Assembly: GCA_000993565.1 (NCBI GenBank)
Contig: LBWK01000001.1
Coordinates: forward strand, 300,208-364,207
Reading direction: 5' to 3'
Origin: a candidate division WS6 bacterium GW2011_GWF2_39_15
Lineage (GTDB): Bacteria > Patescibacteriota > Dojkabacteria > SC72
Length of the DNA stretch: 64,000 bases
The notes beneath the pieces were generated by a model that was given only the letters and a program-made list of their open reading frames with translations, did not search any database and had not been told where the DNA came from. A program made the position numbers and the translations under genes. Position 1 is the first letter of the stretch, and each line of letters starts with the position of its first letter. Of this stretch, positions 6,065 through 53,137 are shown piece after piece.

Positions 6065-6538
6065 ATGCTACTTAACAGTCCTTCAATTATTCACGATAGT
6101 GAGATCCCACCCCAATACACTTGTGATGGAGAGAACATCAACCCGCCTTTTACAATCTCCTATGTACCGCAAAATGCACAAAGCCTGGTCTTTCTTGTCG
6201 AAGACCCGGATGCCCCTGCAGGACTATGGGTACACTGGATGATATGGAATATGGATCCTAAAATGACAGAGATAAGAGAAGGTGAAGTACCAAAAGGAGC
6301 TGTCGGAATGAACTCGGGAATGACCAATGACTGGTATCCTATATGCCCTCCAGAAGGAGAACATCGATATCACTTCAAACTCTTCGCTTTAGATACAATG
6401 CTGGAACTGGATGAGAAAACCGTAACAAGAGAAGACCTTCTTGCTGCAATGGAAGATCATATTGTTGCAAAAGCAGAGTTAGTTGGGAGATATACGAAAG
6501 CTGAAAATAAAGTTACTTTGGAACAGCCCACGACCTAG
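6065..6538 (+). CDS. YbhB/YbcL-family phosphatidylethanolamine-binding protein (PEBP)
   Basis: The HRYHFKLFALD motif and the DPDAP motif are present. Confidence 0.75.
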   Translation: MLLNSPSIIHDSEIPPQYTCDGENINPPFTISYVPQNAQSLVFLVEDPDAPAGLWVHWMIWNMDPKMTEIREGEVPKGAVGMNSGMTNDWYPICPPEGEHRYHFKLFALDTMLELDEKTVTREDLLAAMEDHIVAKAELVGRYTKAENKVTLEQPTT

Positions 6539-14482: not shown

Positions 14483-15100
14483 ATGAGACAGTTACTAATT
14501 AATAAGCTGATTACGGATAAGAAGGTATTAAGTCTCCTGACGCTTAACGACTTCGGAACCTGGTCAAGTGCGAGTCTCTCAGGAATTATATTTCCACTCT
14601 TCTCTATATCACAAATTAAAGGTGCTGATCTAACAGATGTTGGACTATCATCCCTAGTATTCTTAGGTGTAAGTGCTGCTCTCAATCTTCCTTTAGGAAA
14701 GGCTATGGATAGGCTTAAAGGGTACGTGGATGAAACCTATATTCTCGTAGCCTCCTCGGTGCTTAGAGGCATTGCCCTAATTCTTCTCGCCTATTCAACT
14801 TCACTCGCAGCATTATACTTCTATCAAATAATACTGGGAATCGCTCGGTCAATGAACTATGTTTCCTGGAGGGTTCTATTTAGCAAGTACCTGGATCCCA
14901 AGCATGTAGGGGAGCAGTGGAGCGTTTATGACTCGGTTATCGCCATTGGCCTTGGTATAGCAACGTTTATAGGCGGCTACATGGGTGATAATTTCCCGTA
15001 TTCATATGTAATTCTTGTTGCAGGTCTAGTCTCTATTGTTGGAGGCGTATTTCCTCTATTTATTGTAAAGGACGTGAAAGAGATTGCTGAAGAGAAATAA
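14483..15100 (+). CDS. membrane protein, unknown function
   Basis: Six predicted hydrophobic segments. Confidence 0.35.
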   Translation: MRQLLINKLITDKKVLSLLTLNDFGTWSSASLSGIIFPLFSISQIKGADLTDVGLSSLVFLGVSAALNLPLGKAMDRLKGYVDETYILVASSVLRGIALILLAYSTSLAALYFYQIILGIARSMNYVSWRVLFSKYLDPKHVGEQWSVYDSVIAIGLGIATFIGGYMGDNFPYSYVILVAGLVSIVGGVFPLFIVKDVKEIAEEK

Positions 15101-15128
15101 ACGGGTAATGAAATGATATACTCAAGTT

Positions 15129-16028
15129 ATGGAAATAACGTTAAACAGAGAGAGTAAAGAGAGAAGGATCGGCATTCTTTTTATTCGTCTTTTTATACCC
15201 CTCCTGTTACTTTTTACTGTCCTTTCTGTAGGGCTATGGAAATATTCATACATCTTTGGACGTTCCAATGAAACAGAGAAGGATGTACCCGTATTAAAAG
15301 TAGGGGAGAGAAATGAAACGAGCCTACTCAAACCTCTTCCAATTCCACAACCTTCTATCAAGAAAATTGTCGTGCCTGTAGCGCCTAAGAGTGCCGGAAC
15401 AAGTACCGCAGGCTGGTGGAAATATCCAAACGTGATTAAGGAAACAACTAGGTCAGGTGACGATTTATTAGTGTTAGTGAATAAAGAGTATAGATTACCT
15501 TCTACATACGTTCCTGCAGGTTTGGTTTATGCTAATACTAGCGGGATCAGGGTAACTACAAAAGCAAGCTACATGTTAAGGAGTATTGTAATTGAAGATT
15601 TAAGGGAGCTTAATAATGATGCAAAGAAGGCAGGGTTGAACTTGAGTGTGATATCGGGTTATCGGTCGTATGCAGCTCAATCCGGCACCTATAACTACTG
15701 GGTTAATTACAACGGCGGCAACTATGATGTAGTGGACCAGATATCCGCCAGGCCGGGACACAGCCAGCATCAGCTTGGTACAGCCATGGATTTTTCAAGT
15801 AGTGAGATAGGGGACAGGCTGGGAAGTGAGTTTACAGATACGAAGGCAGGTAAGTGGTTAGCCGCAAATGCATGGAAGTATGGATTTGTGATTTCATATC
15901 CAAAGGGGTGGGAAGCGGTAACAGGGTATACTTATGAGAGCTGGCATTACAGATACATAGGGAGAGAGAATGCCAAAGAGATGGTAGAGAGTGGTATCAT
16001 ATTGGAAGATTATTTAAAAAATAAGTAA
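15129..16028 (+). CDS. peptidase M15 (VanY-like D-alanyl-D-alanine carboxypeptidase family), membrane-anchored
   Basis: SGYRSYAAQ...HSQHQLGTAMDF...ESWHYRYIG are M15B motifs, with an N-terminal TM helix. Confidence 0.7.
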   Translation: MEITLNRESKERRIGILFIRLFIPLLLLFTVLSVGLWKYSYIFGRSNETEKDVPVLKVGERNETSLLKPLPIPQPSIKKIVVPVAPKSAGTSTAGWWKYPNVIKETTRSGDDLLVLVNKEYRLPSTYVPAGLVYANTSGIRVTTKASYMLRSIVIEDLRELNNDAKKAGLNLSVISGYRSYAAQSGTYNYWVNYNGGNYDVVDQISARPGHSQHQLGTAMDFSSSEIGDRLGSEFTDTKAGKWLAANAWKYGFVISYPKGWEAVTGYTYESWHYRYIGRENAKEMVESGIILEDYLKNK

Positions 16029-16031
16029 GAA

Positions 16032-16676
16032 GTGAATAAGAAAAGAGTTTTAAACAAGATCCTTAATTGGTATATACTCGTGGGAGTAGTTATGCTCGTA
16101 GTAGCAACCTTATTTATTCTCTCCCCGATTTATCCTTATATCTGGTTCCAAATAAATAATGATGCTTTAGCCAAAGAGCAAGCAAATGTAGTCACTCTCA
16201 TCAACAATATAGATGAAGAGGAAAGAAGTAATACAGCTCCGGAAACTCCAGATCTACCGTCATTTGATTCATCACTTACATCTACAAACACCCTTTTAAT
16301 TCCCTCCATTGGAGTTGTAGGAGCAATAAATGAAAATTCTATTCCGGAAAACGGACTTTCTAAAGGTGTATGGAGAGTTTCTGAATGGGGAGATCCAATT
16401 AATAACACAAACCCGATTATTCTTGCTTCACATAGATTTGGTTATTTAGCCTGGAGTAACAGTTATAGAAAGAAGAATTCATTTGAGAACCTTCCTAAAA
16501 CTAAAGTAGGGGATACCATAGAGATAATATGGGAACAGAGAAGATTTAGATATAAAATATATAAAGTGGAAGAGAATACTAAGATTGCTGATTATAAAGC
16601 CAACCTCATTCTTTACACTTGTAAAACACTAAACTCAGAGATTAGAGTTTTTAGATATGCTATGAGAGTAGAATAA
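16032..16676 (+). CDS. sortase family transpeptidase
   Basis: N-terminal TM helix, catalytic His in ILASHR and Cys in LILYTCK (TLxTC-like). Confidence 0.7.
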   Translation: MNKKRVLNKILNWYILVGVVMLVVATLFILSPIYPYIWFQINNDALAKEQANVVTLINNIDEEERSNTAPETPDLPSFDSSLTSTNTLLIPSIGVVGAINENSIPENGLSKGVWRVSEWGDPINNTNPIILASHRFGYLAWSNSYRKKNSFENLPKTKVGDTIEIIWEQRRFRYKIYKVEENTKIADYKANLILYTCKTLNSEIRVFRYAMRVE

Positions 16677-16677
16677 A

Positions 16678-17895
16678 CTAAGCAGCAAATGATAAAGGTT
16701 GGGAACTCTTCTCGACTTTCGATCCCTTAGGTATAGAACTTCCGCCAGCAATTATTCCGGCAAGGTCAAACAAACCCCATGGGAGAGGTTGATAAAGAGA
16801 TATAAAATTAGCGGTGAAGTTAGCATTTATTATTTCCTGATTTTGACTTAATTCACCAATCCGAAATCCTTTTCTTCTAATGTAATCTGAGAAGACTGCC
16901 TGAACATATGTAGAGTGAGACTCATTCGCCAACAATGAATGATATTGTTTTCCTAACGCAGTATTAATATCTCTGGACATAATATAACCACCTGCATTTA
17001 CCAAAATAGAGGGAAGTAAATACCATCCATTTACTCCGAAAGCCATAAGAATACTTAATATATCTATCACCTGAAATCTTTTCTGAGTGATTATGAACTC
17101 TCTGGACCTATTCGAGACTTCCGGATATTTATATGCAAACCAACTATGTGCTGCTTCATGTGCGAGAATCTCTGCTGGGGTTAATATCTCACGATATACT
17201 TTATCTGAAAAGAAGGAATTCATAATATGAATCCTATTCCCATCGATCCCCATTCCAGCTCTCAATAATGATGGCCTAAGAATATATTCATACCATTTAA
17301 ATCTCGCAAATACGATTTCCGCATTCGGGATAAGAGAATTAATATCAAGAGTATTCCCATTTGGAGACGTTTGATAAAAACCGACAGTACTTAAATACTT
17401 ATCCGGCGACGACGTTCCTGATTTTAGATCAAATACAATGTCTACATTGTTGTTGCCAGGAATATCATAATTTATCCTTAATAATCCATTAGATACAGCA
17501 CCTTTGAAATCTCCACCCTTCATTGACCTAAACATCGTTTTCAAATTGTCTTCAGTGCTTGTACTTAAGCCATCTCCCGCAATTATATGTGGATCCAATG
17601 TTCCTACATCCTGTAGGGGAGTTTCCCAGAGAAACATGGTCTCATTACCATATTTTTCTCTGAAGAGTTCACCAGGAGCTGTTTTTTCAATTCTTACACC
17701 TTTAAAATATTCAATTACCTCATCAGCTTCCGGAAGATGATCCTTAACAAAATCAGCATCTGTTCCCGGAGGGGTTTGCCAGTTTTCCCTGACTTGTTTT
17801 AATCCAGCAGAGTATGCGTAAGTATTATTCATATCGTAATTATAAACTATTGCATCCAAATTAACTATAGGGTATAATTCTCCCAGATATTTCAT
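16678..17895 (-). CDS. putative zinc metallopeptidase (HEAAH motif)
   Basis: LAHEAAHSWF is an HExxH motif; otherwise unassigned. Confidence 0.4.
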   Translation of the reverse strand: MKYLGELYPIVNLDAIVYNYDMNNTYAYSAGLKQVRENWQTPPGTDADFVKDHLPEADEVIEYFKGVRIEKTAPGELFREKYGNETMFLWETPLQDVGTLDPHIIAGDGLSTSTEDNLKTMFRSMKGGDFKGAVSNGLLRINYDIPGNNNVDIVFDLKSGTSSPDKYLSTVGFYQTSPNGNTLDINSLIPNAEIVFARFKWYEYILRPSLLRAGMGIDGNRIHIMNSFFSDKVYREILTPAEILAHEAAHSWFAYKYPEVSNRSREFIITQKRFQVIDILSILMAFGVNGWYLLPSILVNAGGYIMSRDINTALGKQYHSLLANESHSTYVQAVFSDYIRRKGFRIGELSQNQEIINANFTANFISLYQPLPWGLFDLAGIIAGGSSIPKGSKVEKSSQPLSFAA

Positions 17896-17907
17896 ATATC
17901 ATTAATT

Positions 17908-18159
17908 ATGAGAAATACTAAATTACAATCTATATTTGCAGTTGCCATATTAGCAATGGTTTTCTTTTTTGCTATAAACGGTAATACATTTGCAAGTGGA
18001 TATGGTCCTTACGGGCCTTATGGTCCATACGGTCCTCATAATCCCGTTGATGCAAGTATTGTAAATACAGATGTATTTTCTATAGTTGGTCTTTCTTTGT
18101 ATGGAGCAGGTAGTGCATTAATTGCAAATGCTTCAAAGCTCAAGAAACTTATTAAGTAA
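17908..18159 (+). CDS. small secreted GYGPY-repeat protein with C-terminal hydrophobic segment + basic tail (cell-wall sorting-signal-like)
   Basis: Signal peptide, (GPY)4 repeats, then FSIVGLSLYGAGSALIANA followed by SKLKKLIK. Confidence 0.4.
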   Translation: MRNTKLQSIFAVAILAMVFFFAINGNTFASGYGPYGPYGPYGPHNPVDASIVNTDVFSIVGLSLYGAGSALIANASKLKKLIK

Positions 18160-18252
18160 TACTCATTTCCTGACCTTTCCTTGTTTATTGCCCTTTAACA
18201 ACTGATCTATGTCATTAGTGTAAGTTCGGTTAACTAGAAAAGGAGAACCCCC

Positions 18253-18486
18253 ATGATACTTGATTTGATTTCCCCCATTTTACTGTCACTTTGGTATTTT
18301 GTGATTACCTTGGGAGGCTTCTACGCCTTCTACATTGTGGTCACATCATCCTTAGTGGCAAAGAGTAAGGTGAAGCTAGTATTAATCTTAGCGTGCTTGC
18401 AAAGCGTTGTAATACCGATCATGATATCGGCTACACCCGCTGGGCTACACGCTTTGAGAGATCTTCTCACCCTACTTTTATCTTAA
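18253..18486 (+). CDS. small membrane protein
   Basis: Two hydrophobic helices; weak. Confidence 0.3.
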   Translation: MILDLISPILLSLWYFVITLGGFYAFYIVVTSSLVAKSKVKLVLILACLQSVVIPIMISATPAGLHALRDLLTLLLS

Positions 18487-19160
18487 CCGTCGTGCACTAT
18501 CAGGTGCGTTTTTAGAAATAGAGACGCACCTGCGGTTAATCCTTATATTAATGATATAGACTACATTAACCTATAGTATTTACATTTAAGACAGTATGTA
18601 CTATAATGTAACTAGCAATTTAACAATTAAATAGATTAACTTAAATCTGGTGCGCTTAAATCCTAAAAGGATTTCCAGATATAAATTAGTGATTAAAGAA
18701 ATAAGCGCCACATGTAAAACTGTGGCGCTTTCTTTAATCATTGTAAGTTGGTCAGAAAAATACATATAGAATTACATTTAAGCGAATGTAGTACTAAATG
18801 TTTCTGACCAGCTTAGAATGAAAATATAGAGGATACATAGATTAATGTTAAAAGAATATTTTTACATTAAATATGTCTCTTTTAGAAATAAAAGGACAAG
18901 TTCTTTTAAAAGCCTGATATATGATAATAGTAGTATATTTATATACTCAAATTACATATTTGATGGCAACACTCGTTGAAAAAGAATCGGACGGAAAGAT
19001 GGAAGGTATAGGATGTATAGAGTTACATCTCTTCATCGGATAAAGAGTTTTATTATTAGAATTTTTTATCTGATGAAGAGCACGCAGTGCTCTAGAAAAT
19101 CCTTTGCCACGAGGGGGAAACACCCTTCATACCATCAGGTGGCCAACAAACAACTACCAA
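18487..19160. other. ~670-bp AT-rich non-coding region dense in hairpins and a ~30-nt direct repeat
   Basis: Bulged hairpin at 18487-18545 (ttaaccg..caggtgcgt/acgcacctgcggttaa). A ~19-bp-stem hairpin at 18691-18741 (gattaaagaaataagcgccaca / tgtggcgctttctttaatc). An inverted repeat at 18747-18812 (gttggtcagaaa / tttctgaccagc). Direct repeats at 18578-18610 and 18770-18800 (ttacatttaag...gta.tactaaatg). Confidence 0.5.
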
Positions 19161-19170
19161 GGAGGTAGTG

Positions 19171-19899
19171 ATGAAACCCATGACCGTTATTTCAAGTCTG
19201 GTTCTTTTTGCTGTTCTGCTGACTGCATGCAATATCGGCGCGGTTCAATCCGTTTCTGGCGACGTCTCCGCTTGCGGTGGCGTTGTTTCCATGAACGCTG
19301 ATGGAACCTTTACGGCAGATGTCGGCACGATCGTGTACACGATTGGTGGGATCACCCTTCACTATGAAGATGGAGATCCTCTCAAGCTTAACGCTGGGCA
19401 GTTTGCCACAGTCACTGAGCTTGTGACAATCAATCCCACGGCTGGAACCATCACTGGTAAAGTGATTCCAGGCGTCGGTACACCTCCTGCCTGCGTTGTA
19501 GCAGCTGCAGCTATCGTTCCTGCAACCATGACGCCTCAACCGGTTTCGACCGAGTTGGACTTCGTGCTTGCACACGGGGCGCACTTTGCGGATTACATCA
19601 CACCTGGCCGCGACTACCGCGAGCTGTCCGTGATGGACGTCTACAATGCGCTGAAAGCGTATGGATACGAGGACACCGATTTTCTGGTCATTGCCCACTC
19701 AGATGAAGTGCGCGAATGGCAGGAATCTCGGCTTCTCGCGAAATCCTTCGATGCCGGAAAGGCCCTCATTGCCGTTGGCGAGGTGAAGAACCTTAAATCT
19801 GACAAAGCTTTCATGCTGGTCAGTGCCAATGTGTATGATGGTCCGAATGACATCAATGGGAATCCGCTTGAGGTCTTCGACCCCACGCCCAACGAGTGA
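19171..19899 (+). CDS. lipoprotein of unknown function, GC-rich (horizontally acquired)
   Basis: Strong SD aaggaggt 8 nt upstream of the ATG. MKPMTVISSLVLFAVLLTAC has an LTAC lipobox. By eye GC is >50% against ~37% in the surroundings. Confidence 0.6.
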   Translation: MKPMTVISSLVLFAVLLTACNIGAVQSVSGDVSACGGVVSMNADGTFTADVGTIVYTIGGITLHYEDGDPLKLNAGQFATVTELVTINPTAGTITGKVIPGVGTPPACVVAAAAIVPATMTPQPVSTELDFVLAHGAHFADYITPGRDYRELSVMDVYNALKAYGYEDTDFLVIAHSDEVREWQESRLLAKSFDAGKALIAVGEVKNLKSDKAFMLVSANVYDGPNDINGNPLEVFDPTPNE

Positions 19900-19968
19900 T
19901 CCATATCACCGCTCCCTAACTTATCTCTGAAAGGAGGTTAAAAAATAAGTTTAGGGAGCGGTGGATCA
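19897..19968. terminator. long inverted repeat between convergent genes (possible bidirectional terminator or island boundary)
   Basis: tgatcca(tat)caccgctccctaa ...32-nt loop... ttagggagcggtggatca. Confidence 0.4.
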
Positions 19969-19979
19969 TTCAAAAGAAT

Positions 19980-22832
19980 CTATCTTTTGAAAACCAATCC
20001 CCAAATCCAAAAAGCAAGATACACTAAATATATCCATAACGTAGCAAACAAACCGATCATATAGATAATTTGTGGTATATACACGATTATCAGTGAATCA
20101 TAACTCTCTATATTCTTTACATACCATCCGTTTGCATAGTCGTAAGTTGTAAGTTCCTGGCTACTTAGATCTGTCACAGTTTTATTATTTCTGATACCAA
20201 TAAGTCTCCATTGGGCGTTTTTATTCTGATTAAGCGACACTACATAATTACCGACAGCATCTTTACTCCAACTTACCTGTGAACCCCAAACATAATTTTT
20301 TATCGTAAGATCTAAATTCTTCCCTCTATCAAGATTGATTCCATCTACAACCTGACCAGAGTATGATAGGGGAAGAGTAACGAATCTCACTTCTTTAATA
20401 TCAATTGAAAAAATCTTTTCTTTCTCATCATTCAAATACAGGTAAAGAGACATATCATTTTTATCCTTATACCTGTCGATATTCTTTAGATATACATAGT
20501 CAGTTACATAACCGAAAGATTCTTCACGTCTCGTAATAATCCCGTCACTCTGAGAATCTTCCCCCAATACTCCTGAGAAATAGCAGAAATTATCTTTAAG
20601 CCCAAAGATACAATACCGAATACTCTGGGTAGAATTATTCGAATAGGTTACCTTCAATATTCCTCCCTTACCTATATTACTATTCATCACAGGTTCAAAC
20701 ATACATGTCCTTTGTCCAGCAGATGTAATTCTGATACCTGAGCTCTTTTTTAGCTTTGTTATTTGAATTTCCGATGGTTCTGTATCCTCAGGATCACATG
20801 TATATCGGGAACCGTTATTCCAAACTCCGTTATTAAAGTTGTAATTTGAGATCAGATCATAATGCCCAGACTTTAAATCCAGGCTTTGGGATTCATCTTC
20901 ATTATTGATATAGAGGGAGTCTCCGACTATCGAGAACCCATTGTTCTTCGGCTCTTTGCCACATATAGATGAGTTAGGGAAATATTTGTCAACCGGGAGA
21001 CCAACTCTACACTCATTACTCCCATAGATAATTTTTGAACTAACCTGGATACTATCTTTAGAATGATCATTACATGTATTGCGATATAGAGATAATTGCC
21101 CATATTCGCTCACAAGGTTCCAGCAATCGAAATTGCTAATCAATGCCTTAAATTCATTTAACCGAACTTTAGAGCCGTCACCAGGAAGGTCTATGAAATC
21201 ATTTCGAAGAAGAATCCAATTTGTTTGCGTTCTAAATAAAAAATCATTGAGGGTGGTTGCATTTGGTTCCTGTAAGCTATTCAAAATACTGACAGTTTTG
21301 TTTCCCTGTATCTGATTGTAATACCCGTCTATGTAGTCGACATCTGCAAGTCTATGCATAATATCAGGGCCGGCATAACCCCAATCATAGTATGTATACC
21401 CATAGATATGTTTTGATAAAGGTAGAGGAAGAACTTTTTGCCCTTTGGCATTTTCATTTAAATACTCTGCCATTTCCAGATAGCCATAAGTAATTGGGCT
21501 TATCCAAGCTTCATTAATCGCCCTCCCAGGTATAACATATAGCAAAATCCCAAAGATAAATAAGAAGAAAACTATCTGTACTCTGGTAAATGTATAAACA
21601 AACTTCTCTGAAGTGAACTTGAAAAGCTGCTTGATCTCCAATTTCTGGTTAAACAACAATGCCAGCAAAAGAGACCCAATAAAGAAATACGGCATAGACC
21701 AATATGTCCAGCTGTCCCGGAATAAATCTGAGTATAATGGGATCTTTGATAAAGTTTCTGCAAATATACTGCCAAACGGAGAACCGAATCCATTTGCTAA
21801 AATACCAAAGATTATAAAAATAAATAACAACACCCAACGCTTTTTAAGATTAATCAATCCTGAGATGATCATACAGATGATAGGTACTAACCCTAGTGTC
21901 AGCATGGCTGACTTGGATATATTCCCTAGAATCGGGAAATTATGATCGCCTGGATTAATGGAACTTAAACCATGAGTCCAGGCATATGAGCCAAACCCAG
22001 CCATCGTTTCGACAAGCTTATAATCCTTTGAAAATAGTGTCGCATCATTTCTATAGTATTCCAGTAGACTATTCTGTGCGATATCCGAGTAGTTCAGACG
22101 AGAACCAAAGTAGGAGAGAAAGACCACAGTGTTCAAGAAAAGCGCAACGATAACTATTAAACATACTTCTCTAAGCCGAATTCTGATCGAGATCAGATCC
22201 ATTTTCCCTAATACTAGTACAATAGCTGGGACAAGAATCCAATAAATAAGATATATATTTGCAGTTCGCGATATCGACATCATAACCAAAGCAAATATCC
22301 CAGCTCCAAGATAGGGATTAATCGTTTTATCAAAAGTACGAGCTAGAATATAAACCAGAAGGGGTAAGGAAGCATATGCATATAGGAGATGGGGTTGTGG
22401 AAATTGAAAGCGGAGAAACACATAAACATTGAGCATAAAAAATAAACTCCCAACCCACATTGCAAGTTTGCCAAATTTCAAATAACGAAGAAGCATGAAC
22501 ATAAAGATTCCTGCAAAAGCTCTTAAAACCGTGAAGTATAGGAAGTTGGTTAAAGTTATTGACCTAACAAGCATCTGAATAATTAGCTGAGGGAGAAGAA
22601 GAAATAGTTTACTTACTGCGAAGAACTCCGGAACTCCCAGCGCTTCTCCTGACCATACATAAAGACTTCTTTTAATTTCCAAACCTATATTTATCGGATA
22701 GTCGATATCGCCACCATTTATAAGTTGACCCCACTGTCCTTTGTATGCAATTAAATGAATCGCTAGGCTTATACCTAAAAAAACGGCTAAAGGAGCGAAT
22801 TTCTTTAGCAGATTCAAGATCTTTCTTTTCAT
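19980..22832 (-). CDS. large polytopic membrane protein, GT-C-like (AftD/YfhO/DUF3367-like) glycosyltransferase candidate with a ~450-aa extracytoplasmic C-terminal domain
   Basis: About 12 or more TM helices in the N-terminal 520 aa. N-terminus paralogous to the 24829..26469 product. The start is more likely the internal MKRKILNLL (22832) than the ORF-track start at 23000. Confidence 0.5.
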   Translation of the reverse strand: MKRKILNLLKKFAPLAVFLGISLAIHLIAYKGQWGQLINGGDIDYPINIGLEIKRSLYVWSGEALGVPEFFAVSKLFLLLPQLIIQMLVRSITLTNFLYFTVLRAFAGIFMFMLLRYLKFGKLAMWVGSLFFMLNVYVFLRFQFPQPHLLYAYASLPLLVYILARTFDKTINPYLGAGIFALVMMSISRTANIYLIYWILVPAIVLVLGKMDLISIRIRLREVCLIVIVALFLNTVVFLSYFGSRLNYSDIAQNSLLEYYRNDATLFSKDYKLVETMAGFGSYAWTHGLSSINPGDHNFPILGNISKSAMLTLGLVPIICMIISGLINLKKRWVLLFIFIIFGILANGFGSPFGSIFAETLSKIPLYSDLFRDSWTYWSMPYFFIGSLLLALLFNQKLEIKQLFKFTSEKFVYTFTRVQIVFFLFIFGILLYVIPGRAINEAWISPITYGYLEMAEYLNENAKGQKVLPLPLSKHIYGYTYYDWGYAGPDIMHRLADVDYIDGYYNQIQGNKTVSILNSLQEPNATTLNDFLFRTQTNWILLRNDFIDLPGDGSKVRLNEFKALISNFDCWNLVSEYGQLSLYRNTCNDHSKDSIQVSSKIIYGSNECRVGLPVDKYFPNSSICGKEPKNNGFSIVGDSLYINNEDESQSLDLKSGHYDLISNYNFNNGVWNNGSRYTCDPEDTEPSEIQITKLKKSSGIRITSAGQRTCMFEPVMNSNIGKGGILKVTYSNNSTQSIRYCIFGLKDNFCYFSGVLGEDSQSDGIITRREESFGYVTDYVYLKNIDRYKDKNDMSLYLYLNDEKEKIFSIDIKEVRFVTLPLSYSGQVVDGINLDRGKNLDLTIKNYVWGSQVSWSKDAVGNYVVSLNQNKNAQWRLIGIRNNKTVTDLSSQELTTYDYANGWYVKNIESYDSLIIVYIPQIIYMIGLFATLWIYLVYLAFWIWGLVFKR

Positions 22833-22867
22833 AGCTGTAATTATACGAAATAATGTATAATTTAACC

Positions 22868-24037
22868 ATGAAAATACTTCTAGCTGTCCCAGAATATCCT
22901 CCACATCATATTGGAGGTGGTGGTGAAGTTTACAAACAGCTTGCAACAAACTATCAGCGATTAGGGCATGAGGTAACTGTTTTATATGGATATTATCCAA
23001 ATAGGGGATTAAATTCCAAAATTAAGAGCTACAAGAAAGATAATATAATCTTCTATGAGGTCCCGGAGCTACCATACCCTAAGTCGAAACCATTTCTCAG
23101 AACCGCAATGCCAGCTACCATGAAAGCAAAAAAAGAGCTTCAGGACATTATTAGTTCTGACATTTTTGATGTCGCACACCTTCACGGATATGGTTGGCCT
23201 TTAATAAACACAATTGCAGGGCTTTGTATGAAATTTAATATTCCTTATATTTACACATTACATGGATACCCTGAGAGCCAGAATTCTTCCCCAATTTTAA
23301 GACTTATATGGAATAACTTCATATTACCAACCCAAAATAGATCCCTAAGTCAAGCCCATTCACTAACGGCAATCTCCGACTATGTGGCAAAGGATCCAAG
23401 GAACACTCAACTTAGCAAGACTCATACAATATTCAACGGAATCAATTACAGTTCATTTAGAGAGATCGCAAATGAGGTAGATATAAAGACGGAAAACAAC
23501 ATTTCAGATGATGACTTATTCATATATTCAATAGGTAGGTTGGCAGAAATGAAAGGCTTCCAGAATATCGTTAAGTTGATACCTCAGATAAATAAGCAGG
23601 GAATGAAAGTAAAATACTTAATCGCCGGTGATGATGATGGATATATGAAAGAATTGGAAAAGCTAGTTTCAAACTTAAGGTTAGAGGATCAAGTTAAGCT
23701 TGTAGGTTTTCATGGTGATGATACTAAAAAAATGTTCATAAAACAGTGTAATATATACGCAGTTCCATCGTTATGGGAACCATTTGGTTTAACCGTTCTT
23801 GAAGGAATGGTATTTGAGAAACTGATACTAACAACCGAGGCCGGAGGGATTAAGGAAGTTTTGGAGGGATATAGCAACAAGATTAATATGGATGATAAAG
23901 ATCTGATAAATAAAATCATCAGTAGAAAGCAAAATAGAAGCGAAATGGATTGGAATAGATTTAATTGGGAAACAATATCCAAGAATTATCTTAGTCTTTT
24001 AGAAGAAGCCGCTATTCATACAAAGAGATTAGCCTGA
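22868..24037 (+). CDS. glycosyltransferase family 4 (GT-B, GT1/GT4)
   Basis: N-terminal HIGGGGEVY and C-terminal VPSLWEPFGLTVLEGM (an EX7E-type motif). Confidence 0.75.
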   Translation: MKILLAVPEYPPHHIGGGGEVYKQLATNYQRLGHEVTVLYGYYPNRGLNSKIKSYKKDNIIFYEVPELPYPKSKPFLRTAMPATMKAKKELQDIISSDIFDVAHLHGYGWPLINTIAGLCMKFNIPYIYTLHGYPESQNSSPILRLIWNNFILPTQNRSLSQAHSLTAISDYVAKDPRNTQLSKTHTIFNGINYSSFREIANEVDIKTENNISDDDLFIYSIGRLAEMKGFQNIVKLIPQINKQGMKVKYLIAGDDDGYMKELEKLVSNLRLEDQVKLVGFHGDDTKKMFIKQCNIYAVPSLWEPFGLTVLEGMVFEKLILTTEAGGIKEVLEGYSNKINMDDKDLINKIISRKQNRSEMDWNRFNWETISKNYLSLLEEAAIHTKRLA

Positions 24038-24828: not shown

Positions 24829-26469
24829 GTGAGATACTCTTCTTATATGAAAATCCTAACCTGGTTTAAATCACATTACTATATTATTCTTCCAATCCTT
24901 CTCCTCTCAGTAATCTCTTTAATGAATTTCCATTCCAATCAATTTATAATGGGATTGGATAATATATCTCCATACTTTAATTCAAGAGCAGTGCTAGATA
25001 AGCTATTTGGAAGTGAAACTGGTGCTGTATTCGCGAACCTCCCCTTTCTATTTACACTCCCTATATTTGAACTTCTTAAACTCATTTCAATTCCCATATG
25101 GGCAATCAATCAGCTGTATTTGATGTTCGGACTTTGGATGGGAGTATTAGGAACGGGATACCTCGTATACAGAATCACAAAGTCTAAAAAAGGCTTTCTG
25201 TTTGGATCAGTACTATCTTTGGCAAACCTTGCAACTTTCTGGATCTTTAATCAGCCTAACTACTTCTTTGTAGCCGCATTTGCATCTATACCATGGTTAA
25301 TGGAGTGGGGGATAGGAAAGCCAGAGAAAAACCTTGTCTTAACAATAATCAGGATCACCGCCGTTATACTATTCTTCCAGACGACAATGAATCTAGTGGT
25401 CTTCATCTCATACCTCTTTGCAATTCTTCTAATACAATTTGCTATAAACACTAGCAGAGTGGAATGGAAGAGTAATTTAATAACTCAGACAAAAAGGCTG
25501 GGAATTATTCTATTAATACTTTTAATTGTATGGCAAGCAGGAATATTTCTGACAGGAAAATCCGATTTTGTTGTTTCTAAATTAGTAACATACTACTCAA
25601 GTATCAAAGAGAACCCTCTAACAAAAGCCATTACTAAAGATCTTCAGGCATCAGGAATAATTAATAACAATATTGTCAATAATATTGTTTTCAAAAACTC
25701 ATGGGTTGAAACTCATACAACGGAGGGCATCAGACTATTTCAAAGCTATGATTACTACTCAGGTCCTATATTCCTAATTGGACTTATACCGTTCGTACTA
25801 GCCCTTTCGACCCTTTTCAATAGTGATCGACAAAAGAAAATTCCTTTACACTTTGCTCTCATAGTGGGACTCATACTAATGAGCAGTATTATGTTGAAGG
25901 CAACTCAAGGGGTACCAGTATTAAGTGAGGCTTTCAGGTGGAGTGCAAGTAAGTTCTGGCCCCTTATTATCTTTCCGATTATCCTCCTCGCTACAGACTC
26001 TCTAGTCACGTTAAAAAGGCCTTTGATAACCGGGATCGTCTTCGGTCTGCTCCTCATTTATATCCTCCCAATGTTTACGGGTAATCTCTTTTCCAAAGAA
26101 CTTGTAACAAAGCTACCTGGCGAGTATTTCAAACTGGATAACAATATTAAAAGTGAAACTCTCTATTACTATCTTCCTGCTCCTCAGGATCTATATTTTT
26201 ATACATACAAATTCGGATATTTTGGTTCCGATTTTGTTTCGTATATGACAAAAGGAGACACTCAAAAAACCGGGATTCTCTCATACTTCAATAATGTTGA
26301 GAGGTACAAGAGTATTAGTAAATCCCTCGTAAACTGTGAGTCGAAAATTGAGAATATTAAGATAATCTGGGATTCAAATGTAGAGACAGGGAGTAATATA
26401 ATTAAAAATTGTTTGGACAGCAAATATAATCTAACTTCAAAAGACAGGGGATTATATATATATGAGTAA
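24829..26469 (+). CDS. polytopic membrane protein, paralog of the N-terminal domain of the 19980..22832 product (GT-C-like candidate)
   Basis: Collinear similarity at the N-terminus (NISPYFNSRAVLDKLFG vs DIDYPINIGLEIKRSLY, etc.); at least 10 TM helices. Confidence 0.5.
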   Translation: MRYSSYMKILTWFKSHYYIILPILLLSVISLMNFHSNQFIMGLDNISPYFNSRAVLDKLFGSETGAVFANLPFLFTLPIFELLKLISIPIWAINQLYLMFGLWMGVLGTGYLVYRITKSKKGFLFGSVLSLANLATFWIFNQPNYFFVAAFASIPWLMEWGIGKPEKNLVLTIIRITAVILFFQTTMNLVVFISYLFAILLIQFAINTSRVEWKSNLITQTKRLGIILLILLIVWQAGIFLTGKSDFVVSKLVTYYSSIKENPLTKAITKDLQASGIINNNIVNNIVFKNSWVETHTTEGIRLFQSYDYYSGPIFLIGLIPFVLALSTLFNSDRQKKIPLHFALIVGLILMSSIMLKATQGVPVLSEAFRWSASKFWPLIIFPIILLATDSLVTLKRPLITGIVFGLLLIYILPMFTGNLFSKELVTKLPGEYFKLDNNIKSETLYYYLPAPQDLYFYTYKFGYFGSDFVSYMTKGDTQKTGILSYFNNVERYKSISKSLVNCESKIENIKIIWDSNVETGSNIIKNCLDSKYNLTSKDRGLYIYE

Positions 26470-52364: not shown

Positions 52365-52754
52365 TTACTCAATTCTCACTAGGTTTGCAATAATTATTAA
52401 TCTATTCCGAAGTGTTAAGAGTGGCGTACATGTGTAAAGCGTCAGGGTTTCGTTACCCTCCAATCTTTTTTCATATTTGATCTCTTTCTTCTCTACAATC
52501 TCTTTACTATTTACCGTATAAATATACCGATTTCTCCTATACTCCAGATACACAATATCTCCCTTTTCAACCCTATTTAAATAGAAAAAGGGAGGGGGCA
52601 ATATGCTTGCGTATGATATTCTGTGCCCTGCAATAACGACGTTTCCACCGTCACCGGGGAATGGAGTATAAGGAAGGTGCCAGAGATCTAGAGAAAGCTC
52701 CTTTCCGGTATCGACATACTCATTTACCCCTATTACAGGAATGATCAATTTCAA
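52365..52754 (-). CDS. sortase family transpeptidase (catalytic domain; the N-terminal TM helix lies upstream in-frame without a canonical start)
   Basis: GNVVIAGHR (His) and LTLYTCTP (Cys, TLxTC). The ORF as called starts at TTG. In-frame upstream to the stop at 52890-52892 the sequence encodes YFCLVFFLFLVIFLCV (a TM helix) with no ATG/GTG/TTG before it. Confidence 0.6.
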   Translation of the reverse strand: MKLIIPVIGVNEYVDTGKELSLDLWHLPYTPFPGDGGNVVIAGHRISYASILPPPFFYLNRVEKGDIVYLEYRRNRYIYTVNSKEIVEKKEIKYEKRLEGNETLTLYTCTPLLTLRNRLIIIANLVRIE

Positions 52755-52894
52755 GTCATATGAAAACGTATGAACCCTTGGTAACTCAGGATGAGAGTCG
52801 ACCTCTTTACGAATTGGGGTAACACAAAGGAATATAACGAGAAAGAGAAAAAATACTAAGCAAAAATATCTTACTATTTTACCGGAAGATTAAA

Positions 52895-53137
52895 CTATTT
52901 TAGCATTGCCACAACTCCATCGAGTTGTGCGAGAAGAGATTTCTTCATCTCTCCTTTTACTAATTCAAGTTTAGCACTTTGAAGTGAACTAATTATTGCC
53001 TCCATCTGACCAAGTATTTTTTGAGTATCTTCTTTCATTAATATCAATTTTTCGACTCCCCTTAGTTGACCCTCTATCCTATGTAGCCTATCTTGAATGG
53101 TCGACGGACCTTTTTTCGCCATAATTAACCTTTTCAT
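52895..53137 (-). CDS. CsoR/RcnR/FrmR-family (DUF156) protein lacking the canonical Cys/His metal ligands
   Basis: LHRIEGQLRGVEKL matches the family LKRIEGQVRGV helix; no Cys and no His elsewhere. Confidence 0.5.
   Translation of the reverse strand: MKRLIMAKKGPSTIQDRLHRIEGQLRGVEKLILMKEDTQKILGQMEAIISSLQSAKLELVKGEMKKSLLAQLDGVVAMLK

Follow-up and report, generated by a model that had tools for sequence, protein, structure and literature searches.

The subject of this work is a sortase gene, and the gene of a very small membrane protein that accompanies it, in a stretch of 64,000 nucleotides (hereafter the window) from the candidate division WS6 (Dojkabacteria) bacterium GW2011_GWF2_39_15, a groundwater genome of the candidate phyla radiation (CPR) assembled in a contig of up to 869 kb. 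The gene order in this region is gyrB ... gyrA, a half-size transporter of the major facilitator superfamily (MFS), VanY/LdcB, the sortase, an open reading frame (ORF) with an HExxH motif, an 83-aa ORF and a 77-aa membrane ORF; further downstream are an AT-rich gap, a lipoprotein gene, a 1006-aa polytopic membrane protein on the − strand, and glycosyltransferases. An earlier note on this DNA had described a sortase followed by an opposite-strand HExxH ORF and an 83-aa ORF, and all three are found as described. The sortase (16032–16676, + strand; 214 aa, KKR06279.1 / UT34_C0001G0319) is divergent and membrane-anchored, as identified by Pfam PF04203, an AlphaFold2 (AF2) model and Foldseek. The HExxH ORF (16678–17895, − strand), assessed from the ORF list and its homologues, lies as an optional insertion between the sortase and the 83-aa gene (17908–18159, + strand). 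The product of the latter, hereafter the mini-protein, is a candidate dedicated sortase substrate, characterized through its ORF, its family and its ratio of nonsynonymous to synonymous substitution rates (dN/dS).

The sequence of the mini-protein runs MRNTKLQSIFAVAILAMVFFFAINGNTFA, SG(YGP)4, HNPVDAS, IVNTD, VFSIVGLSLYGAGSALIANA and SKLKKLIK. As read from these letters, residues 1–29 (17908–17994) form a signal peptide (N-terminal hydrophobicity 3.07), with a predicted TFA/S site that would place the cut after Ala29. Four YGP units follow (residues 32–43, 18001–18036), recognized in the sequence and in the family alignment, and make up a short 'cargo'; their four copies differ in DNA at synonymous sites. 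Next is HNPVDASI (residues 44–51, 18037–18060), which the motif alignment identifies as the window version of a family motif, then a C-terminal hydrophobic helix (residues 56–75, 18073–18132) with conserved Tyr65 and Gly68, found by the window ORF filter and the family alignment, and finally the Lys-rich tail SKLKKLIK (18133–18156), predicted from the sequence to be cytoplasmic. The earlier note had described a secreted protein with (GPY)4 repeats, a C-terminal helix and a basic tail; the secreted type and the C-terminal features hold, but the repeat is (YGP)4 and not (GPY)4. The tripartite layout of a cell-wall sorting signal, which the same note had pointed out, is present in the window copy and conserved in the family, with the motif at the place of a sorting signal.

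Within the window, the 83-aa ORF is the only plausible gene with a C-terminal helix and basic tail, as the 3 other ORFs passing this filter all overlap longer ORFs on the opposite strand. The screen of all window ORFs also found no LPxTG-type motif followed by a C-terminal helix and basic tail, in agreement with what had been noted previously. The identical 83-aa protein is encoded on 15 public contigs, and comparison of its gene with three orthologues gave dN/dS values of 0.25–0.48, as expected for a real gene.

The mini-protein family and the adjacent sortase

A word-indexed search with the single 83-aa sequence retrieved 2 relatives only. A HMMER profile search against 1.84 billion representatives, each standing for one 50%-identity cluster, returned 48 matches at E ≤ 1e-3; 47 of these are 72–97 aa long and align end to end, and the 48th is a 451-aa repeat protein. 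With further members added, the family comprises 68 sequences, and the length, tabulated for 64 of the 68, ranges from 71 to 97 aa. Scanning GTDB genomes with family patterns recovered one locus only, and a similar scan of metagenomes gave 18 loci, 17 of which are spurious YGPYGPH repeat matches, leaving L019 alone as real. The family has no Pfam, NCBIfam or PHROG match, no member reaching the cut-off of a model, and is so far unannotated.

The layout of a signal peptide, a motif before a hydrophobic helix, and a positive C-terminal tail is present across the family (the last 12 residues carry a median net charge of +3), and the number of YGP units among homologues varies from 1 to 4. The near-invariant positions are Ala29, Gly31, a repeat P-Y, Pro46, position 49 and Gly68. 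The motif, H-x-P-[VE]-[DPE]-T-[GSA]-[FIL], is found in 67 of the 68 members. Among these 67, the His is present in 61 and the Pro in all; the next residue is Val in 35 and Glu in 21, followed by Asp (33), Pro (26) or Glu (7). Thr is found in 66, Gly (45), Ser (9) or Ala (9) comes after it in 63, and Phe, Ile or Leu ends the motif in 61. A median of 35 residues separates the Thr from the C-terminus, and the predicted scissile bond follows residue 49. Neither the window copy nor the family motif matches an LPXTG-type pentapeptide (L/N-P-x-T-G/A/N). Two pentapeptides had been proposed earlier as the recognition site, and aligning the family on its motif distinguishes between them: NPVDA is in register (P-V-D-A, then S), and IVNTD is not.

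The sortase itself matches the Pfam Sortase family PF04203 at 33.4 bits, against a gathering cut-off of 26.6, and its N-terminus is a membrane helix. The general model TIGR01076 (sortase_fam) scores 19.2 bits, below its cut-off of 39.35. None of the NCBIfam models for classes A–F is reached, the best being class D (20.2/17.6), class C (17.3) and class E (17.2), with cut-offs of 140–165, and the same scan gave no match to TIGR03784. Searching the PDB by sequence produced no match with the single sequence, and a best E-value of ∼0.09 with a profile. An AF2 model built from an alignment with 38 homologues has a pLDDT (predicted local distance difference test) of 87.8, and Foldseek returned 132 PDB matches to it at E ≤ 1e-3, the TM-score on the target reaching 0.72. 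The best 50 of these 132 are all sortases and belong to classes C, A and D, the top matches having an identity of ∼18%; the model thus agrees with the eight-stranded β-barrel that defines the superfamily. The catalytic His134 and Cys197 (in LILYTC) are invariant across the 38 homologues; Arg205 is the probable catalytic Arg, judging from the alignment, in which Arg208 is less conserved. The enzyme is thus a real but divergent sortase outside classes A–F, as would be expected for an altered specificity.

Wherever enough flanking DNA is available, the mini-protein gene lies downstream of the orthologous sortase and on the same strand. In L010/L011 the sortase is upstream with the HExxH gene in between, as in the window, and in L012, which encodes a mini-protein identical to that of L010, it is directly adjacent with a 216-bp gap. 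The sortase is also directly upstream in L019, and upstream with gaps of 163 bp in L013, 89 bp in L037, 156 bp in L039 and 105 bp in L041, always on the same strand. In L015 a sortase 55% identical to that of the window precedes a 78-aa TPEDTG protein by 58 bp, and in L018 a sortase with 51% identity has an 84-aa DPEDTG protein downstream. L017, with a 65% identical sortase, has two extra genes and the HExxH gene before the mini-protein, which begins at the edge of the contig and is identical to that of L014. Altogether, the gaps between the two genes are 58–163 bp in L013, L015, L037, L039, L041 and L044.

The pairing extends to more distant sortases from more distant CPR genomes, P0109 (58% identity, over the catalytic domain), P0028 (43%) and P0033 (41%), at the loci L043, L044 and L045. 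The neighbourhood there consists of an S1-domain protein, a RadA-like ATPase, the sortase, a small gene, a ∼300-aa secreted protein and a ∼900-aa membrane protein; the upstream neighbour is therefore VanY in the WS6-type loci and a RadA-like gene in L043–L045, and the pair is kept. Each of the three sortases is followed by a small protein with a signal peptide. In place of YGP repeats, these mini-proteins have a Cys loop, C-x9-13-C, reading CPQAYGGGVVC, CTQVTQYGGAVGIVC and CVTVYGGGVVC. The loop is succeeded by VHTTVNTGLGD, VHTPVDTGLAD or THEPVDTDLGD, which precedes a helix and a basic tail, and this signal may be summarized as VH-x-[PT]-V-[DN]-T-[GD]-L-x-D. Two of the three are detected by the hidden Markov model of the WS6 family, at 15 and 30 bits, and the third, from L045, scores 14.7 bits with TIGR01167 (LPXTG_anchor), just below the cut-off of 15.9. 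The pairing thus holds where the sortases are only 41–67% identical, and in two flanking contexts. Since the pair persists despite changed flanks, and a single C-terminal module is found on two different cargos, this module behaves as a sorting tag would.

Among the orthologous sortases, that of L039 (2905–4845) is unusual in its length of 646 aa, with a long N-terminal extension of ∼430 residues before the membrane helix. The extension is of low complexity, and rich in Pro, Thr, Gln and Glu.

A probable dedicated substrate and its alternatives

The explanation that I prefer, and hold to be somewhat more likely than not, is that the mini-protein serves its neighbour, a CPR-specific sortase, as a dedicated mini-substrate marked by a non-canonical signal. 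For recognition, cleavage, the acceptor and the role of a wall-bound peptide, I infer the following scheme. The mini-protein would be exported by Sec, and its signal peptide removed after TFA29, with the C-terminal helix and Lys-rich tail then holding it in the membrane. The membrane-anchored sortase, through His134, Cys197 and Arg205, would recognize H-x-P-[VE]-[DPE]-T-[GSA], ∼6 residues outside the helix, cut after the Thr position (Ala49 here) and form a thioacyl intermediate. A Tyr/Pro/Gly-rich peptide of 12–25 residues would next be transferred to an amine of a peptidoglycan precursor, and the cleaved helix and tail would remain in the membrane.

Several observations weigh against this explanation. 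After both predicted cleavages the 'cargo' is extraordinarily short, at 12–28 residues, with no evident function. The window copy, HNPVDAS, is the single member with Ala49 where 66 of 67 have Thr; as the identical protein is found on 15 contigs, this is not an assembly error. The window protein may accordingly be cleaved poorly. In the helix, Tyr65 and Gly68 match the motif in conservation, which would also fit a helix with a function of its own. In the enzyme, position 205 is Arg in 32 of the 38 homologues and Lys in the other 6. Finally, the profile search, which is biased toward full-length matches, saw the signal in small proteins only and in no large surface proteins, and no other carrier was found in the 64-kb window and ∼150 kb of related loci.

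Some of these points would suit an uncleaved membrane partner that binds the sortase by its helix, its juxtamembrane motif or both, and stabilizes, localizes or gates the enzyme, possibly as a pseudo-substrate. A direct precedent is SafA, a 52-aa protein without a cleavable signal peptide, oriented N-in/C-out, with an exoplasmic juxtamembrane FPW motif; through FPW it binds the actinobacterial housekeeping sortase, and shields it from signal peptidase (PMC9282373). Like the mini-protein, SafA is a very small membrane protein with a single helix, encoded directly downstream of a sortase and conserved across a phylum-level group. The near-invariant Tyr and Gly in the helix, an ectodomain too short for conventional cargo, and the tolerance of Ala for Thr at the supposed scissile position all favour such a role. 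However, the topology is the opposite, the CPR family having a cleavable signal peptide with an A-x-A site and an N-out/C-in orientation, and it has no FPW motif. Its best-conserved residues instead make up a sortase-type P-x-x-T-G motif, spaced canonically from a helix and basic tail, which is the signature of a substrate, and two unrelated cargos on one signal follow the logic of a sorting tag. I regard a SafA-like role, the main rival, as unlikely, though not far-fetched. It is more doubtful that the mini-protein is simply a small type I membrane protein of an envelope cluster, linked to the sortase by inherited gene order, with its C-terminus a plain anchor and its motif meant for another partner, such as one of the nearby glycosyltransferases or large polytopic membrane proteins. 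The WS6-type block is indeed syntenic (gyrA, VanY, sortase, mini-protein, polytopic membrane protein, GT4 and ∼950-aa membrane protein), and in L043 and L045, too, the pair has weakly similar homologues of the large membrane proteins in its vicinity. Against this, the pair is kept when the upstream gene changes from VanY to the RadA-like gene, and when the HExxH gene or two more genes are inserted within it; at sortase identities of 41–55%, gene order is usually retained only for coupled genes, and the motif matches what sortases cut.

A released peptide, such as a signal or a bacteriocin-like or RiPP-like (ribosomally synthesized and post-translationally modified peptide) product, freed by the HExxH protein as a protease or by sortase-catalysed hydrolysis, would account for the tiny mature region with its repeats or disulfide-type Cys loop, and for the HExxH protein encoded between the two genes in the window. 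Yet most loci with the pair lack the HExxH gene, the neighbourhoods have no conserved genes for modification, export or immunity, and a helix with a basic tail is not known from leader or follower peptides, all of which makes this origin highly improbable. Explanations beyond those considered here are left with a slim chance. Three other readings were rejected. Lys-linked pilus polymerization is unlikely because the mature part has no Lys in 51 of 64 mini-proteins; head-to-tail polymerization or cyclization does not agree with an N-terminus that is not conserved between the two cargo types; and a prepilin or lipoprotein would carry a G/F-x-x-x-E site (cut between G and F) or a lipobox, neither of which is present.

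The dedicated-substrate explanation also has a broader form, which I hold to be quite unlikely. A CPR-wide sortase clade would have co-evolved with a dedicated mini-substrate bearing a seven-residue H-x-P-x-D-T-G signal, and its main product would be a peptide of 12–28 residues fixed covalently to the wall, Tyr/Pro-rich in WS6 and Cys-looped in L043–L045. This peptide would serve as a structural or acceptor element of the CPR envelope, for example as a primer or attachment point for glycans that the large GT-C-like membrane proteins accompanying the pair would make. If true, this would be a peptide-based wall decoration without counterpart in Firmicutes or Actinobacteria.

Surrounding genes and the second sortase

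The HExxH ORF had been called a peptidase in the earlier note. Its HEAAH is present, together with NESH ∼75 residues downstream, conserved in its two homologues; these could be the HExxH and the downstream Glu ligand of a gluzincin-type metallopeptidase. The protein is a putative peptidase only, with no Pfam, NCBIfam, PHROG or PDB match; a single-sequence AF2 model is unusable (pLDDT 35). Because the homologues are 376–377 aa long, the real start is probably Met22, at ∼17832, some 21 codons later than in the ORF as delimited above. Only the closest clade, which consists of the window, L010/L011 and L014/L017, has homologues, and the gene is absent from L012, L013, L015, L018, L019, L037, L039 and L041. 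As L012 has the mini-protein of L010 beside its sortase without the HExxH gene, the latter is a recent insertion or deletion; it is optional, and lies outside the conserved pair. L017 (4771–7251) contains three different HExxH proteins between the sortase and the mini-protein gene, with HEILH (204 aa), HELWH (234 aa) and HEQGH (377 aa, the homologue of the window ORF). In L014 (187–2064), the 377-aa HExxH gene is split by a frameshift.

Immediately upstream of the sortase, a VanY/LdcB-type peptidoglycan carboxypeptidase (15129–16028, + strand) is supported by a Pfam VanY match of 134 bits and by synteny. It occupies this place in all WS6-type loci, and is given here as context, its role in the system being unproven. 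The preceding 205-aa ORF (14483–15100, + strand) matches MFS_1 over profile positions 9–177 of 347, about half a normal transporter, and this short form is kept in relatives, at 202–205 aa. In L010 (5371–6799), an AbiEii-type toxin gene and a partner ORF lie between the MFS gene and VanY, in a locus that is otherwise syntenic.

Downstream of the mini-protein gene, the 77-aa ORF (18253–18486, + strand) encodes two membrane helices. It has a strong ribosome-binding site, AAAGGAGAA, and is called as a gene on other conspecific contigs; no homologue was found among the related loci. The next 680 bp (18487–19167) have a G+C content of 32% and contain no long ORF, and an Rfam search of 15000–20500 gave no match. 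The next gene (19168–19899, + strand) encodes a lipoprotein with the lipobox LLTAC, and its G+C content is 53%, against ∼34–37% in its neighbours. None of the related loci has a homologue of it, and unrelated lipoproteins take the same position in related genomes, of 185 aa in L010, 154 aa in L015 (with D-A-D-type repeats) and 133 aa in L018. The site resembles a slot for varying lipoproteins, which may have been filled through horizontal transfer.

Large polytopic membrane proteins without a Pfam match accompany the sortase and mini-protein pair in both types of neighbourhood, at 19980–23000 (− strand) and 24829–26469 (+ strand) in the window, at 6446–8732 in L043 and at 6237–8726 in L045. 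Tblastn gives identities of 21–24%, with E-values from 1e-8 to 4e-5, and in precomputed annotations the relatives of these proteins in L015 and L018 show weak or faint hints of GT-C_AftD. These proteins and the pair may form a wider envelope-assembly module.

The second sortase to which the earlier note alluded is present at 52365–52754 (− strand), as a 129-aa ORF of a more canonical type, with 77 bits for Pfam Sortase and 61 bits for TIGR01076 (cut-off 39); with TIGR03784 it scores 37 bits, far under the cut-off of 158. No partner mini-protein was found among its neighbours. The suggestion that both sortases of the window recognize a divergent motif is thus partly supported, as probable for the first, which has a motif-bearing partner, but not for this one. 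It is plausible that the second enzyme serves conventional substrates, in a division of labour between the two. The ORF (region 52365–52961, − strand) begins at a TTG and has no membrane anchor; in frame upstream, a hydrophobic helix, VRYFCLVFFLFLVIFLCV, is encoded beyond a stop codon and has no ATG, GTG or TTG ahead of it. The gene could have a non-standard start codon, or it could be anchor-less or decaying.

Relation to known sortase systems

The canonical comparison is with the LPXTG signal (PF00746, TIGR01167) and its class A enzymes. The mini-proteins share with it the signal peptide, a motif ending in T-G, a helix of ∼20 residues and a basic tail, and in both cases the enzyme is a membrane-anchored Cys/His sortase, encoded next door here. 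In the CPR family, however, the Pro is one position further from the Thr, and a near-invariant His stands two residues before the Pro. The cargo is of 12–28 residues only, and the window enzyme fails every model of classes A–F.

Other systems resemble the pair in part. Reportedly, the 'class GN' or marine proteobacterial sortase (TIGR03784) has a single adjacent target, and would thus share with the present case a variant motif and one conserved target gene beside the sortase; its target is said to be a large protein, unlike the mini-protein family of 71–97 aa. The class B pilus sortase Spy0129 of S. pyogenes cleaves (E/Q/V)(V/P)PTG motifs between T and G (PMC3019223). This is again a non-LPXTG motif with Pro at the P2 position, 26 of the 67 CPR members read [VE]-P-T-G, and the substrates of Spy0129 are likewise encoded beside it (PMC3019223). 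These are large Ig-fold pilins joined via Lys, however, while the CPR mini-proteins are mostly without Lys, and the window sortase does not belong to class B.

Sortases have been known in the CPR, one family (fam000526) being found in more than half of the genomes and in nearly all Microgenomates (PMC6744442), and the construction of the CPR cell envelope remains unclear (PMC5220378). In the literature on CPR/Patescibacteria sortases, no description of substrates, specificity or this partner was found; a preprint on a 'novel pilus system in CPR' concerns donor-strand-exchange pili, not a sortase. For the partner family and its motif, no paper, Pfam or NCBIfam model was found. What is new, then, is most likely a sorting signal, with its sortase, in which the motif is longer and shifted and the cargo minimal; it is apparently undescribed.

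An adjacent candidate mini-substrate with a defined motif makes the specificity of a CPR sortase directly testable, with a short peptide and a small enzyme domain. If confirmed, the system would represent a new variant of the sorting signal, usable to annotate CPR surface proteins, and might yield a sortase with orthogonal specificity for protein ligation.

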